Below are positions 9,635-62,743 of a stretch of DNA of 64,000 nt, in pieces. The notes beneath the pieces are model-generated. The model saw only the letters and a program-made list of their open reading frames with translations, searched no databases and was not told the origin of the DNA. Within the stretch, counting starts at the first letter, position 1. The number at the start of each line of letters is the position of its first letter. Both the position numbers and the translations under genes were made by a program. This stretch comes from Candidatus Omnitrophota bacterium (lineage in GTDB: Bacteria > Omnitrophota > Gorgyraeia > VGKH01). The stretch is from NCBI GenBank assembly GCA_016867135.1, contig VGKH01000002.1, forward strand, positions 6,312 through 70,311, given 5' to 3'.

Positions 9635-10699
9635 ATGCATAAATTTATTAAGATTTATAGTAGAAGGTTTTTTCTGGTCATTTTTATTTCCATTTTTATT
9701 AGTTCTTGTTCAGCCGCAAAAAGACAACAGCAATTCTCCGCGGATTTAAGAAAAGCCGCATTAAAACTCGCCCAACAGGATAGTTTTCCCAAGAATGATT
9801 ATTATACAATCGACCAGGACGATATACTTGATATAACAGTATGGAAGTCTTTAGGCTCAAAAGAAGGAGAGGCGGAAAAGGAGTATTTTATTAACGATGG
9901 CGATCAATTGGAAATTTCTGTATGGCAATGGCCAGACCTTTTAAGAAACGTTGTCGTTCGTCCCGACGGGAAAATTTCTTTTCCTTTAGTAGGAGATATC
10001 CAGGCAAAGGGGAAAACTTTAACCGCATTGGATGATGAAATTACCGAGAAACTTTCTTCTTTTATTAAATCTCCCGAGGTTTCAGTAATGATAACAGCAT
10101 TTGGGGCAGAGCAAGAAGGTTTCTTAAAGCCGGAGATATCTTTTGTTAAAGTTAATGAGTTGAGCGCAGAGCAGGCAGTGGCTCCCGACGGTAATATTTA
10201 TTTGCCTTTAATCGGAGCGGTTCAGGCTTCCGGCTTAACGTTAAATCAATTAGGTTTGAAGATAAAGGATAGCGTCGCTCAATTTGTCCAGAATCCGGAA
10301 GTCTCGGTTACTATCAAACAATTCGGTGGTAGAAAACTTATTGTCTTGGGGGAAGTTACCGATCCGGGAGTATATCTTTTTACCGGGAAAGCGACTGTTT
10401 TGGAAGCCATCGGTTGGGCAGGGGGCTACACCAGAAACGCCGTTTTAAAAAACGTGCTTGTTATAAGGGGGAATTTATCTAAACCGGAAGTTTTTAATCT
10501 GAATTTGCGCAGTGTGCTGGATAAAAAAGATATGAGCCAGAACCTAGCAATTCAGGCAAGAGATGTAATATATGTTCCCAGGACTGTTGTTGCTGAAGTA
10601 AGCCATATTTTATCACAATTGCTTGGCCCTTTGACAAGTTCATCGAGCGCAGTTACTGCTATAAAGACTATCAGGACTGGGCCTAGCCCCAAGAAATAA
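9635..10699 (+). CDS. polysaccharide export outer-membrane lipoprotein (Wza/EpsA family; Poly_export + SLBB)
   Basis: Lipobox ISSC after signal peptide; repeated PDG..ISFPLVGDIQAKG / PDGNIYLPLIGAVQASG SLBB motifs. Confidence 0.8.
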   Translation: MHKFIKIYSRRFFLVIFISIFISSCSAAKRQQQFSADLRKAALKLAQQDSFPKNDYYTIDQDDILDITVWKSLGSKEGEAEKEYFINDGDQLEISVWQWPDLLRNVVVRPDGKISFPLVGDIQAKGKTLTALDDEITEKLSSFIKSPEVSVMITAFGAEQEGFLKPEISFVKVNELSAEQAVAPDGNIYLPLIGAVQASGLTLNQLGLKIKDSVAQFVQNPEVSVTIKQFGGRKLIVLGEVTDPGVYLFTGKATVLEAIGWAGGYTRNAVLKNVLVIRGNLSKPEVFNLNLRSVLDKKDMSQNLAIQARDVIYVPRTVVAEVSHILSQLLGPLTSSSSAVTAIKTIRTGPSPKK

Positions 10700-31289: not shown

Positions 31290-32363
31290 ATGAGCTATAA
31301 AAATTCCTTTTTAGTTTTAATAATTTCTTTTGGCCTGTCTTTTTTTCTCACGCCATTTTTTATCAAGATTGCCAACAGATTTAAATTAGTTGATACTCCT
31401 AGCTCCAGAAAACTGCACGAAAAACCCACTCCGACTCTAGGTGGGATAGTTATCTTTATTGCTTTTAGCATAGCTGTTTTAGTCGTACTGGCCTTGGATC
31501 AAAATTTCAGCAACGCCCTGTTGATGAATCTGCCAGGCCTTCTTATAGGTAGCTTTGCATTAGTAATTTTTGGAGTTTTACACGATACAAGAGATATGCC
31601 TGCTTCGGTCAAGCTTTTCGGCCAGATAATGGTCGCCCTGATTGTTTTTTTATCAGGCATCAGAGTAGAATCTATAACTAACCCTTTTGGCGGAGAGATA
31701 ACATTATTTTATCCTCTGAGCTTTATTGTAACAATTGTTTGGATAGTCGCGTTGATCAATGCTATAAATTTGATTGACGGTTTAGATGGATTAGCCGCAG
31801 GAATTACAGTAATAGGCTCGACAGTTATGCTGGTAATCGCATTATTTAAGAATGATATTGTTTCTGCTTTGCTATGCTTAGCTTTAATTGGAAGTTGTCT
31901 GGGGTTTTTAAGATATAATTTTTACCCAGCCAAAATTTTTATGGGCGATGCAGGCAGCATGTTCTTAGGGCTTGTCTTAGGAGTGATTTCTATCCAAGGC
32001 ATAAATAAAATGGCTATCACCGTAGCCTTGTTGATACCGATTACTGTTTTGGCTATCCCAATTTATGATACCGCGCTTTCAATATTCAGAAGATTACTTT
32101 CCAGTAGAGATATTTTCAAGCCCGACAGAGAACATATCCATTACAGATTATTAAGTATGGGCGTGACGCACAAGCATGTGGTTATGCTGCTTTATTTCAT
32201 CGGCGTCTATTTTGGTATTATGGCTTTCCTGTTTATTCTCATCCCGATAGAATTTGCCTTTATTCTTCTAGTACTTTTATCCATGGGAGTTTTTATGGGG
32301 ATAAAAGCTATAGGATTTATTGAACGAAGACTTAAATCCCCTCGGCAACGCAATGAATCATAA
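31290..32363 (+). CDS. undecaprenyl-phosphate N-acetylhexosamine-1-phosphate transferase (WecA/MraY family priming glycosyltransferase)
   Basis: [44 protein letters not shown] motifs; ~10 TM. Confidence 0.85.
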
Positions 32364-33792
32364 AATAATAGCTTCTTTTATTTTTCTCTCCATATTTTTT
32401 ATTTCCACTAATTCTACCGCTCAGGCTTATGAACATGTCCCAGCCGCTATCCATATCCAAACTAATATCAGCGATGGAGCATACTCTTTTGAAGAAATCG
32501 TAAAGCAGGCTAAAGAAAAGAACATCCAGGTATTAATATTCTCCGACACAGCATTGAGGAGATGGGAATATGGCGTAAGGCCCCTAGAAAATATCATAAA
32601 AAGAAGGGTAGAGCATTCTTCCGTATTTAGATTCGGCATAGCAAAATATCTGGCGGCAATAAAGAATCTCCAAGATAAATACCCCGCAATAGTTTTTGTG
32701 CCCGCGGTTGAAGTTGTGCCATTTTATTATTGGCAAGGTAATTTCTTAGGCGAAGACCTGACTTTGTATAACTGGCACAAACAGATGCTGGTCATCGGGA
32801 TGGAAAAAGCAAGCGACTATAGATATCTGCCAATTATAGCAAATTATAGTTTGTTGCCTTTGTATAAAGGTAATATCATTAGGCTTTGGCCGCTACTGAT
32901 TATTTTCTCGGGGATTTTTTTAATAATAAAATTCAAGAAAAAAATTGCTTACAGGAATTATGGTTATTTATTCTTGCTTCTTGGTGTTATTTTTTTGGTC
33001 AATAATATGCAATTTAGTGTTTCCCGATTTAACGCCTACAGCAAAGACAAGAGGACAAAACCTTATCAGGATTTGATAGATTATGCAACAAGAAGAGGCG
33101 GCCTTGTATTTTGGTGCCATCCAGAAGCTGAGAATCTTGACAGGGTAAAAGGGGTTAATGTTTGCACGTTCCCTTATAAAGAAGAATTGAAATATGCGCA
33201 AAATTACACCGGTTCGGCTGTGATGTTTGATAAGAATCGTTCCATCGCCAGGGTGGACGATATTTGGGATGAGATTCTTTTGGCTCATTGCTTGGGCAAA
33301 AGGGCGCCAATTTGGGTGATAGGAGAGATAGATTACCACGGAGATCAAAAGGATTTATCCAGAATCCAGACTATGCTCCTGCTTAATAGCTTGACAGAAA
33401 ACGATGTTATCAGGGCATTAAAAAACGGCATGATGTACGCAAAATTAAATAATCTCACAAATGATTTCAGCCTGGATAAATTTGTAATCTCCGACGGAGA
33501 AAACAATACATTTGGTTTGATGGGGCAAGAGATCGAAATAAATTCCAGGCCAGAGGTTATTATTGAAACTTCTTGCAGCAATGCGCCAGAGGAGCCGATA
33601 GAGATACGGTTGGTAAGGAACGGAAAATTGATTCAAACATTTAACAGCGAATCTTCGAATTTCAGAGTTAAATACCAAGATGACTATTTTTCGCCTGGTG
33701 AAAAGATTTATTATCGGATAATGATAAAAAGCGGTAATAATTTTTATCAGGTTATTTCCAATCCTATTTTTGTGAGATTTGTTTCAAAATAG
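32320..33792 (+). CDS. hypothetical exported/membrane protein with possible PHP-like domain
   Basis: Signal peptide; [19 protein letters not shown] resembles PHP motif I with His->Gln substitution; central TM pair. Confidence 0.3.
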
Positions 33793-33831
33793 TGAAGTAC
33801 TATGTCCTAACGGTAGCAGCATCTTTTTTAT

Positions 33832-33960
33832 GGTTCCGACGCTCCCCGATGATTCTGTCGGGATTCCGTACTGAAAACGTCGGAGCCTTCGGAGGTCGGA
33901 ACCCCGACCCAGAATGCCAATCATCCATGCTCTTACGGACGTGGCATTCTGGCGTCGGGG
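33832..33960. other. GC-rich multi-hairpin element (candidate structured ncRNA, leader or small inverted-repeat element)
   Basis: 9-bp helix 33832-33840/33895-33903 (GGTTCCGAC/GTCGGAACC); 17-bp bulged helix 33902-33918/33943-33960; repeated CCGAC/GTCGG units; UUCG-type loop. Confidence 0.3.
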
Positions 33961-34026
33961 CAAAACTCTTGAAGTTTCTATTGATAATTTCAAAGGTTAT
34001 ACTATAATCTTTTTTAAAGGATAAAA

Positions 34027-34845
34027 ATGTACGAAGCTTATTGGGGATTAAAAGAAAAGCCATTTGAGAATACTCCCGACCCGCGGTTTCTGTACCATTC
34101 TTCTCAGCACGAGGAGGGGCTCTACAGATTACTTTACGCTGTTAAGGAACAGAAGGGAGCGGCGTTAATGACCGGGGTTTTTGGTTGCGGAAAGACTCTC
34201 CTGGGAAGGACCATGCTTCGGGAGTTAAGTAAAGACATATACAGGGTTGGGTATATAAGCAATCCCCAGTTGTCTTACTTGGAGCTTTTGATGGCCGTTG
34301 CGACATCTTTAGGGGTAAGCGGCCTGCCTTCAAAAAAGACTGAGGTATTAACTAATGTTGTCTTGGATGAAATGAATAAGGTTCTGCAAAACAACATGAA
34401 GGATGGCAAAAAGACAGTGGTGATTATAGACGAAGCCCATGTCATAGAGGACAAAGAGGTCTGGGAGGGCTTAAGGCTTTTATTGAATTTTCAATTAGAG
34501 GATAGATTTCTCTTAACCCTGCTTCTGTTAGGTCAACCCGAGTTAAAAGAAAGTATAGATAACAACAAGCAATTTTCCCAAAGAGTTGCCATAAGATGCC
34601 ATCTTGGCCATATGAATCAGGAAGATACTCATAATTATATATTGCACAGGTTAAAGATAGCAGGCAGGGAAGAGCACATTTTTTCGGAAGGCGCCCTTAA
34701 GGCGATTCACGAGAAATCCGGCGGCATACCCCGTAGGATAAACCATATCTGCGACCTTGCGCTCCTGACAGGCTTCGGTAGAAAACTGACCAATATCGAC
34801 GAGAAAGTCGTCTCAGAGGTGACCAAGGACCTAGAAGGCGAGTAA
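34027..34845 (+). CDS. ExeA/GspA-like AAA ATPase (putative secretion ATPase, PEP-CTERM-locus type)
   Basis: Walker A GVFGCGKT; Walker B VVIIDEAH; ExeA-like N-terminal YEAYWGL..PF. Confidence 0.75.
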   Translation: MYEAYWGLKEKPFENTPDPRFLYHSSQHEEGLYRLLYAVKEQKGAALMTGVFGCGKTLLGRTMLRELSKDIYRVGYISNPQLSYLELLMAVATSLGVSGLPSKKTEVLTNVVLDEMNKVLQNNMKDGKKTVVIIDEAHVIEDKEVWEGLRLLLNFQLEDRFLLTLLLLGQPELKESIDNNKQFSQRVAIRCHLGHMNQEDTHNYILHRLKIAGREEHIFSEGALKAIHEKSGGIPRRINHICDLALLTGFGRKLTNIDEKVVSEVTKDLEGE

Positions 34846-62346: not shown

Positions 62347-62422
62347 TGCCCCTGTAGCTCAGTCGGCAGAGCACGTCCTTGGTAAGGACGGGGTCATCGG
62401 TTCAATTCCGATCGGGGGCTCC
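62347..62422 (+). tRNA. tRNA-Thr (anticodon GGT)
   Basis: 76-nt cloverleaf, 7-bp acceptor stem, anticodon loop TTGGTAA, TPsiC arm GGTTCAATTCC, encoded CCA. Confidence 0.9.
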
Positions 62423-62465
62423 AGAGGAAAATTTTTGTCGTTTTTATAAGCCAAAGTAGTTTATA

Positions 62466-62648: not shown

Positions 62649-62721
62649 AGGAGCGTCGGTTAACGGTAAACCACCGGTCTCCAAAACCGGGACTGCGGGT
62701 TCAATTCCTGCCGCTCCTGCC
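62649..62721 (+). tRNA. tRNA-Trp (anticodon CCA)
   Basis: 73-nt cloverleaf, anticodon loop CTCCAAA, conserved position upstream of secE. Confidence 0.9.
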
Positions 62722-62743
62722 AATTGATCAAAACAATAAAATT

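Follow-up and report, generated by a model that had tools for sequence, protein, structure and literature searches.

A structured GC-rich island between two genes of an Omnitrophota contig

We analysed a 64,000-nt stretch of contig VGKH01000002.1 from a Candidatus Omnitrophota bacterium (the window), and within it a GC-rich island at positions 33832-33960. The island lies in a 234-nt spacer between a PHP-like gene upstream and an ExeA-like ATPase gene downstream, the two flanking genes that a preliminary description of this DNA had named, and it belongs to a repeat element rather than to a regulatory RNA. Its GC content is 59.7%, compared with 38.2% across the whole window, and a scan for non-coding GC islands of at least 55% found only this segment and a tRNA region. 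Folding with RNAfold gave -67.0 kcal/mol for the plus strand (shuffled sequences -43.6 +/- 4.2; z -5.55) and -69.4 kcal/mol for the minus strand (z -6.11), values that 0 of 200 shuffles matched on either strand; the whole 234-nt spacer gave z-scores of -5.2 and -6.1. The structural observation made in the preliminary description is thus real and statistically solid, as both the GC contrast and the folding z-scores bear out.

The individual structures reported earlier can be found in the sequence, with some corrections. The 9-bp helix (GGUUCCGAC/GUCGGAACC, 33832-40 with 33895-903) and the CCCGA...UCGGG hairpin (33846-62) both exist. The long bulged helix is also present, although we pair 33902-19 with 33942-60, leaving C33953 bulged and a loop of 22 nt instead of 24; this helix and the 9-bp helix contend for C33902-C33903. 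The CCGAC/GTCGG unit does recur, at six places (33836, 33857, 33879, 33895, 33904 and 33954) and not five, in a 129-nt island, while the window-wide frequency is 1.1 per kb. The sequence CUUCGG is found at 33887-92 as reported; in the family consensus, however, it closes the hairpin P1 (see below) as a UUC triloop or pentaloop and not as a classic C(UUCG)G tetraloop. Finally, the overlapping open reading frames (ORFs) noted on both strands are there and are spurious (33792-34007 on the plus strand, 33784-33993 and 33800-34063 on the minus strand).

The island is part of a clean 168-nt insertion

A genome scan with the ATPase protein yielded 80 loci, mostly from Candidatus Omnitrophota. Two of these (L006, with 95% ATPase protein identity, and L007, with 85%) keep the order from PHP-like to ATPase gene as well as the ATPase promoter, and have no element. 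A third relative without it, the closest one (L248-L250), was obtained via a member of the 90% protein cluster of the window ATPase, has the same gene order and promoter, and is 94% identical to the window in DNA on the ATPase side. In these three relatives the spacer measures 65-72 nt. The empty site in L248-L250 reads ...TTTGTTTCAAAATAG^CAAAACTCTTGAAGTTTCTATTGATAA..., with both flanks identical to those around a 168-nt block in the window, and its exact junction is AAAATAG^CAAAAC (AAAATAG^CAAAACTCTTGAAG in L248-L250). The element is therefore a clean insertion of 33793-33960, so that the right end given in the preliminary description was correct while the left limit lies at 33793 rather than 33832. 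The boundary is ambiguous by one G (TAG|TGAAG...GTCGGGG|CAAAA or TA|GTGAAG...GTCGGG|GCAAAA). Comparison of the filled window site with the empty L248 site revealed no target-site duplication (TSD), and there are no terminal inverted repeats (TIRs), the ends TGAAG... and ...GTCGGGG not being inverted repeats of each other. The 234-nt spacer is an outlier because of this insertion alone; nearly all genes in window positions 1-62200 lie on the plus strand and are separated by very short spacers.

The stop codon of the PHP-like gene directly adjoins the element, and 20 nt past its other end begins a near-consensus promoter of the sigma-70 type, situated 3' of the element and 19 nt ahead of the ATPase start codon. 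The same TTGATA-16-TATAAT promoter is kept in L006, L007 and L248, all of which lack the element. This arrangement bears directly on the leading idea of the preliminary description, in which the island would be a cis-regulatory leader or riboswitch of the ExeA/PEP-CTERM ATPase gene. Such a role would suit an element located upstream of that gene on the same strand, and alternative pairings are possible among its four CCGAC/GTCGG arms. However, the conserved promoter lies 3' of the element, orthologous loci with 85-95% identical ATPases (L006, L007) or with members of the same 90% protein cluster (L248-L250) do without it, it is missing upstream of the ATPase gene at every one of about 75 other homologue loci, and the other copies described below precede unrelated genes or run antisense. 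A GC-island scan upstream of the 80 ATPase homologues likewise found no equivalent element. We consider a leader function for the ATPase gene extremely improbable, and the idea of a cis-regulatory RNA is not supported.

For the biology of the PHP/ATPase locus the element matters little, since the ATPase gene keeps its own promoter, and its effect there is probably neutral to mild. By analogy with repetitive extragenic palindromes (REPs), the two stable hairpins, which begin 39 nt past the PHP-like stop codon, could shield the 3' end of the upstream mRNA or hinder read-through.

Sequence identity between the window and L248, computed in 60-nt bins over 32360-34845, is about 60-88% within the PHP-like gene (about 75% overall), and about 92-100% per bin (about 96%) over the spacer and the greater part of the ATPase gene. 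The change occurs exactly where the element is inserted and so marks a recombination breakpoint at the same position. At the DJ-1/rpsU locus we looked for a second empty site without success, as the candidate L253 proved identical to L228.

The element has copies at 12 loci

Homologues were collected by several routes. An exact scan of metagenome contigs for the 19-mer GGTCGGAACCCCGACCCAG, which spans the junction of helices 1 and 3, returned 13 loci, nine of which (L220-L223, L225-L229) align far past the 19-mer; the other four (L224, L230-L232) were discarded as chance hits in high-GC coding DNA. Searching a protein database with the six-frame translation of the canonical copy led, through spurious or extended ORFs, to L234 and L251/L252, and a profile search with six-frame peptides of ten copies gave a single new locus, L251. 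L225 was also obtained in full length, as L240-L242. With each orthologous pair counted once, the total comes to 12 distinct loci, 11 of them besides the window. A covariance model built in this analysis (R1; 139 positions, 37 pairs) scores the copies at 73-152 bits and matches the window at 33789-33969 with 126.8 bits (E 4e-33). Over 610 kb of collected sequence R1 found nothing besides the known copies, and no second copy was detected in the 64-kb window by blastn or by R1, with default filters or with filters off. Blastn and nhmmer searches of the element against the window and 85 loci returned strain-identical copies only; plasmid and phage collections gave no match with blastn in distant mode, and viral contigs gave chance hits only with a 14-mer and three structured patterns. 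The 19-mer scan missed three records that carry the 19-mer (Ga0194111_10031084, Ga0194113_10038688 and OBEQ010528510), so the collection is not exhaustive and our copy counts are lower bounds. Of the loci found through peptides, L251 has the 19-mer intact and L234 carries a single change (AATCCCGAC, which makes a U.G pair on the plus strand).

Where the source gives a taxon name it is always Omnitrophota: the window and L234 (FJZ10), L228 (Omnitrophica WOR_2) and L223. L234 carries gene FJZ10_05300 on another contig, while the window genes are FJZ10_00700 and its neighbours; the shared locus-tag prefix implies one metagenome-assembled genome (MAG) with at least two copies. These two copies are 84% identical and occupy different contexts in opposite orientations. 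Four loci (L221, L222, L242 and L251/252) come from one groundwater metagenome, and the copies in general are mutually 76-93% identical. A further copy is implied by the sequence of a 132-aa database protein (P0164), in which an element-encoded peptide, KVPTLLRRSEPRPRKP, is fused upstream of a prepilin-like N-terminus, GVTMIELVMTILV; this copy would lie upstream of a pilin gene. As a separate observation, L234 has 46% GC as opposed to 38% in the window despite the common MAG prefix, which may reflect a binning problem or a compositional island.

The preliminary description had reasoned that further copies would identify the island as a repeat instead of a regulatory RNA, and such copies exist, at low copy number. 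It had also suggested a small RNA of the 6S or SRP type, which does not fit an element that has no Rfam match, is absent from orthologous loci and is present in at least two diverged copies in one MAG. The Rfam comparison it proposed gave no match at gathering score in Rfam 15 and nothing credible at E of 10 or less for the window copy, and nothing at E of 1 or less for nine other copies. [quoted passage not shown]

Two conserved hairpins form the core of the family

A canonical copy measures 101-129 nt and consists of a (G)TGAA end, a hairpin (P0) with a T-run, two further hairpins (P1 and P2), and then an N-AAA flank. TGAA or a close variant opens the element in 8 of 12 aligned copies and is kept even in L251, where P0 is deleted. 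P0, a GC hairpin of 7-8 bp whose loop is UAAC or UUAC, precedes a T-rich linker and folds at -9.4 to -16.5 kcal/mol. Its sequence varies while its pairing is kept, with two-sided changes at pairs 13-39, 14-38, 15-37 and 19-33. P1 has the consensus TTCCGAC-G-CYCC, a 3-nt loop and GGRG-GTCGGAA; its 7-bp base is invariant in 11 of 11 copies, and its upper pair 67-117 shows one compensatory change (L228) and two C.A mismatches. P2 directly abuts P1 and reads CCCCGAC-CCAG, a distal stem of variable length, and CTGG-C-GTCGGGG. Its basal 11 bp are nearly invariant, and its distal pairs 137-179, 138-178 and 139-177 covary (AAU/AUU, UCC/GGA, AAA/UUU). P1 agrees with the reverse complement of P2 in CCGAC-[G]-C...G-GTCGG, the additional G being on the same side in both, and so the conserved module is an inverted pair of one bulged palindrome. 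An N-AAA(A) flank follows GTCGGGG in 11 of 12 copies; as CAAAA is already present in the empty site of the window locus, this flank is not element sequence and probably reflects a preferred target (TTTN^ on the opposite strand).

Across the alignment 91.8% of cells are paired, compared with 28-51% in slid controls. Double changes occur in 8 pairs, a number reached by 3 of 500 shuffles, and none of 500 shuffles attains the observed covariation score. Hairpin pairing is therefore under constraint, and the bases of two of the stems are under constraint for sequence. Wobble pairs favour neither strand (about five G.U on the plus strand versus four A.C, that is, G.U on the minus strand), which fits selection on DNA hairpins.

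These features can also be examined for a multi-copy structured non-coding RNA (ncRNA) gene, either a small RNA or the RNA partner of a protein, for example a guide-RNA-like omega-RNA relic of an IS200/IS605 right end read from the minus strand, with its TTCA end abutting flanking 'guide' DNA. The compensatory changes in P0 and distal P2, the extreme folding z-scores and the sequence-invariant stems, which fit recognition by a protein, would all be expected of such a gene. The minus-strand order of TTTN target, hairpins, last hairpin, NTTCA and flank resembles transposon-end RNAs, and an undescribed family would be compatible with absence from Rfam. On the other hand, the unit is not bounded on either strand by a conserved promoter or terminator, there is neither a conserved single-stranded seed nor a strand preference in wobble, no TnpB or IscB-like gene lies beside any of the 12 loci, and the window copy tolerates a 42-nt insertion and the loss of P0. 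We therefore judge an ncRNA gene of this kind distinctly unlikely.

Another possibility is that the core acts as duplex DNA, with GGTCGG-AACC-CCGACC and two outer half-sites forming a cluster of sites for a dimeric protein, such as one of the nucleoid or partition type. The invariant core forms a 6+4+6 inverted repeat of its own, the four YYCCGAC half-sites point in alternating directions, and a function independent of orientation would agree with the 5:6 split in the orientation of the copies relative to their neighbours. Nevertheless, the spacing of the outer half-sites ranges from about 20 to 60 bp with the length of P2, the covariation in distal P2 and P0 argues for hairpins, and the clean 168-nt insertion shows that the whole block moves as a unit, all of which make duplex sites a very unlikely explanation.

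Rejected on inspection by eye were a hammerhead ribozyme and group II intron domain 5, whose core motifs are absent.

The window copy is degenerate

Within this family, the copy in the window is a degenerate one (Table 1). Its P0 folds at -0.8 kcal/mol, no better than shuffles, and differs from an L222-type sequence at five positions, all changes from GC to AT. In intact copies P0 and the T-rich linker resemble an intrinsic terminator on the plus strand (alignments A2 and A3); a terminator scan of the window copy found no terminator-like site, and the terminator-like P0 is presumably not functional there.

A second departure is a 42-nt fragment nested in the apical loop of P1, which is found in the window copy only and is missing from all 11 other copies. 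The reverse complement of this fragment aligns to the region from P1 to the 5' part of P2 (TCCGACG..CGGAATCCCGA..CAGAAT), with a core spelled CGGAA(T/C)CCCGA between TCCGACG and CAGAAT. Its best match is the L234 variant of the same MAG, with a score of 27 compared with 12.7 +/- 2.1 for shuffles (0 of 2000 as good). The fragment is an inverted, degenerate partial copy of the element itself. It supplies the CCCGA...UCGGG hairpin and two of the six CCGAC/GTCGG units.

Table 1. Features of the locus and of related sites (window coordinates unless a locus is named)
Feature	Position	Strand	Basis or remark
PHP/CehA-McbA-like metallohydrolase gene	32320-33792	+	Upstream neighbour
Entire inserted element, 168 nt	33793-33960	+	Empty site in L248-L250; R1 match
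Terminal motif (G)TGAA and short spacer	33793-33799	+	Conserved end of family
Decayed P0 hairpin, CTATGTCC-TAAC-GGTAGCAG	33800-33819	+	Homology to paired P0 of other copies
T-rich linker, CATCTTTTTTATGG	33820-33833	+	Alignments A2, A3
P1, TTCCGAC-G-CTCC...GGAG-GTCGGAA, interrupted by the nested fragment	33834-33901	+	Invariant base
Nested 42-nt fragment in P1 apical loop	33846-33887	-	Placement ambiguous by repeated CC (33844-85 or 33846-87)
P2, CCCCGAC-CCAG-AATGCCA...TGGCATT-CTGG-C-GTCGGGG, inverted relative to P1	33902-33960	+	Basal conservation, distal covariation
Flanking CAAAA, target-site DNA outside the element	33961-33965	+	Present in empty sites L248, L006
Promoter-like site TTGATA-16-TATAAT of the ATPase gene	33981-34008	+	11 of 12 consensus matches; outside the element
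TIGR03015-like ExeA/PEP-CTERM-system ATPase gene	34027-34845	+	Downstream neighbour
Palindromes within RAYT-like genes	L240 10260-10292, 10385-10413; L243 10252-10282

Copies lie between unrelated genes in both orientations

At all 11 other loci the element lies between co-directional genes without a common function. The neighbours are exbD with a tonB-like gene, a DEAD-box helicase with a small EF-Tu-domain-2-like protein, an RRM protein with a Na/Ca exchanger, Flp-type pilins with a 347-aa protein, a pair of PilZ genes, and a WYL-helicase, as well as endonuclease III and a downstream gene (L229/L238), rpsU and DJ-1 (L228), and a REP-associated tyrosine transposase (RAYT) and MoxR (L240-L242). 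The element is on the strand of the flanking genes at 5 loci (window, L222, L229, L226 and L220/223) and opposite to them at 6 (L234, L221, L240, L251, L227 and L228). It abuts a TAG stop codon in the window and in L222.

In several cases annotated coding sequences read into the element. In PilZ protein P0163 (L251 16-375) about 30 C-terminal residues, together with the stop codon, are element-encoded, the protein ending ...SGSGFRPPKERRNYK; the endonuclease III call P0001 (L229/L238) is about 45 residues longer through the element; and FJZ10_05300 (P0002, L234 2804-4099) was called with an N-terminal extension of about 85 residues across it, its true start likely being at L234 3059, ATGAATAAT. 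The family thus accounts for spurious or extended ORF calls such as the FJZ10_05300 N-terminus and the C-termini of the PilZ and endonuclease III proteins.

This distribution allows an assessment of whether the element is a portable module of 3' untranslated regions (3'-UTRs), acting at the RNA level as a terminator or as mRNA-stabilising hairpins, selected by the host and spread by recombination instead of transposition. Several observations are consistent with this: on the plus strand an intact P0, a GC hairpin of 7-8 bp (about -9 to -16.5 kcal/mol), leads into a U-rich run, P1 and P2 are very stable (-56 kcal/mol and z -9.5 for the L222 core), the flanking genes are co-directional at all 11 loci with the TAG stop abutted at two, and the insertion site in the window is a recombination breakpoint. 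However, at 6 of the 11 loci the element is antisense to its neighbours and offers no hairpin followed by a U-run in that orientation, and in the window P0 has been lost. Nor does a terminator require two stem sequences that stay invariant in genomes ranging from 37 to 53% GC, and relatives manage without the element at the PHP-ATPase locus. Overall, a host-selected 3'-UTR module is an unlikely account of the family.

A possible route of mobilisation

Taken together, the island is probably a copy of a GC-rich mobile DNA element that is non-autonomous, of low copy number and dispersed in Omnitrophota genomes, and it looks like selfish DNA. More tentatively, it may be mobilised in trans in single-stranded form ('peel-and-paste') by an HUH/Y1 tyrosine transposase, either an IS200/IS605 TnpA or a RAYT, which we regard as the likeliest mechanism although at less than even odds. 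It is suggested by the lack of TIRs and of a TSD, the sub-terminal hairpins, the apparent TTTN^ target and the paired inverted palindromes. Elements of the IS200/IS605 family have no TIRs and generate no TSDs, integrate on the 3' side of a tetra- or pentanucleotide and depend on hairpins at their ends (PMC7290912), and REPs are bulged palindromes recognised by TnpA_REP, often as inverted dimers (PMC8266576, PMC3733652, PMC3116915). In this lineage the element was inserted, or brought in by recombination, exactly between the PHP-like stop codon and the ATPase promoter.

One copy lies beside a candidate enzyme. At L240-L242 a complete copy is located 44 nt past the stop codon of a RAYT-like gene that encodes 196 aa, and runs in the opposite direction to it. 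The gene product scores 26.8 bits with PF01797 (cutoff 23) and 64.8 bits with the REP-associated tyrosine transposase model NF047646 (below the cutoff of 80). We put the probability of such adjacency by chance roughly at 1-5%, an estimate of ours and not a computed value, based on about 24 neighbouring genes looked at and about 1-5 such genes per genome.

A number of observations weigh against the mobile-element reading and against the link to such an enzyme. The copy at L240-L242 is on one side only of the RAYT-like gene, and RAYT homologues at three other places (L243, L244-246 and L247; 61-66% identical) have no copy within 7-17 kb. No RAYT, TnpA or TnpB gene lies near any other copy, a tblastn search of the window with the RAYT protein was negative, and the canonical GTAG tag is absent. 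An autonomous parent element was not found at the 12 loci, in the plasmid and phage collections or in the viral contigs, a limited search space. Copy number appears low for REPs or REPINs (at least two in MAG FJZ10, one in the 64-kb window), R1 finds no copy at 80 other loci (about 540 kb in all), roughly half of these loci being labelled Omnitrophota, and 76-93% identity between copies implies that most insertions are old. As the exact 19-mer served to retrieve 9 of the 12 loci, the invariance of the core is partly built in by the search. Finally, a single comparison of filled and empty sites is available, and since the insertion site there is a breakpoint the element may have come by homologous recombination with a donor and not by transposition at this locus.

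A more far-reaching version, which we think improbable, takes one of two forms: the family would be a new Omnitrophota-wide single-stranded-DNA hairpin element whose P1 and P2 are recognised by an uncharacterised HUH/Y1 enzyme, or a minus-strand omega-RNA-like partner of a transposon-derived protein, ending ...TTCA. The omega-RNA-like version is the more speculative of the two. If either were true, the element would not be inert junk; it would be a nucleic-acid module that is functional and has been domesticated, with a portable terminator in addition.

Relationship to known repeat families

The closest kinds of known repeats are REP/BIME/REPIN elements and ORF-less derivatives of IS200/IS605 ends (palindrome-associated transposable elements, PATEs), and the element is a member of no named family. 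With the REP/BIME/REPIN and RAYT systems of E. coli, Pseudomonas and Stenotrophomonas it shares an extragenic location between co-directional genes, units that are imperfect, GC-rich palindromes, bulged asymmetrically and present as an inverted pair (P1 resembling the reverse complement of P2), the lack of TIRs and TSDs, presence/absence polymorphism in close relatives, and one copy next to a RAYT-family gene. In contrast to those repeats, it has no GTAG tag at the hairpin foot, ATGG or ATAG occurring in just 6 of 11 copies. The four bases 5' of P1 are ATGG in five copies and ATAG in one, the others being AAAG, GTCT, GGGG, GCTG, GAAA and AATG. In REPs a conserved, unpaired GTAG or CGTC tetranucleotide at the palindrome foot is needed by TnpA_REP (PMC8266576, PMC3733652). 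The element also differs in its additional third hairpin with a T-run and its conserved TGAA terminus, in units that abut directly and fold each on itself instead of pairing with the other, and in that three of the four RAYT loci looked at have no copy, while the RAYT gene of a REP/REPIN system is single-copy and has its cognate repeats around it. Whereas REPs and REPINs run to tens to hundreds of copies per genome, the copy number here appears far lower. The eight phyla listed for tagged REPs in the available part of PMC3733652 do not include Omnitrophota.

Within the REPs, the CGTC-tagged superfamily (Di Nocera et al. 2013, PMC3733652) deserved separate attention. Common to both are CGTC/GACG on the outer side of the palindromes (GACG-CTCC..., ...CTGG-CGTC) and a head-to-head-type dimer of units. 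CGTC-tagged REPs have CGTC as an unpaired terminal tag, an 8-9-bp stem starting with A-T pairs, loops of 4-5 nt and a CCA tail. In the element CGTC extends over the bulge and into the paired basal stem, and the stems, the loops and the tails are all of another form. On the geometry of stem, loop and tag as described in that source, we rejected membership in this superfamily.

IS200 has a terminator hairpin, which the left-end hairpin and T-run of the element recall. IS200/IS605 ends and PATEs have in common with the element the absence of TIRs and target duplication, hairpins near both ends and an apparent preference for a short target (TTTN^ on one strand). They differ in that no autonomous insertion sequence with ends matching those of the element was found. 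In IS608, moreover, the two end hairpins have the same sequence in direct orientation, whereas here the conserved hairpins are inverted and adjacent and P0 is not conserved in sequence, and IS200/IS605 hairpins stop about 10 nt short of the end while P2 reaches the very end. TIR-type MITEs (Correia/CREE, ERIC, RUP, MITEAba12) are similar in their size of 100-170 bp, intergenic location, structured transcript, insertion polymorphism and ability to alter gene 3' ends, but they possess TIRs and TSDs through DDE transposases, and the element has neither. Rickettsia palindromic elements also place palindromic repeats inside ORF ends, as seen here in the PilZ (L251) and endonuclease III (L229/L238) genes; they are typically in-frame within genes and specific to Rickettsia, and have no sequence relationship to the element.

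Omnitrophota is an uncultured phylum known almost only from MAGs, and our literature search found no description of interspersed repeats in it. The family explains GC-rich islands resembling structured RNA that are flagged by GC-based ncRNA screens in AT-rich genomes, and such islands are false positives for riboswitch hunts. The element can serve as a marker of strain-level variation and recombination breakpoints in MAGs, and the family could be used to test whether RAYT/Y1 enzymes move repeats without a GTAG tag.

Other features of the window and related loci

Genes scanned near the element have polysaccharide or glycan functions (GT4/WecA-like, GT2, methyltransferase, DUF2079, PEP-CTERM-type ATPase). 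Further along the window are tRNA-Thr(GGT) at 62348-62423 and tRNA-Trp(CCA) at 62649-62722, separated by 226 nt; ARAGORN detected no tRNA besides these two, both far from the element.

At L234, positions 784-2337 hold tandem small genes with N-termini similar to those of Flp/Tad pilins (AQS[IV]IEYA[IV]LL), followed by a very Cys-rich protein of more than 690 aa. The RAYT-like genes hold perfect in-frame palindromes, GTAGGGAAYGGTTT and AAACCRTTCCCTAC, between the HUH and Tyr motifs (Table 1), which are GTAG-headed and REP-like and encode the repeated peptide VGNGLKPFPT. Upstream of the L240 RAYT-like gene, a 346-nt spacer contains, within 9699-9960, three different perfect palindromes of 13-16 bp with cores of A/T runs (GGGCAATTTTTGCC, GCGCAAAATCTCT and TCCCAAATTTTGAATA), unrelated to the repeat element.

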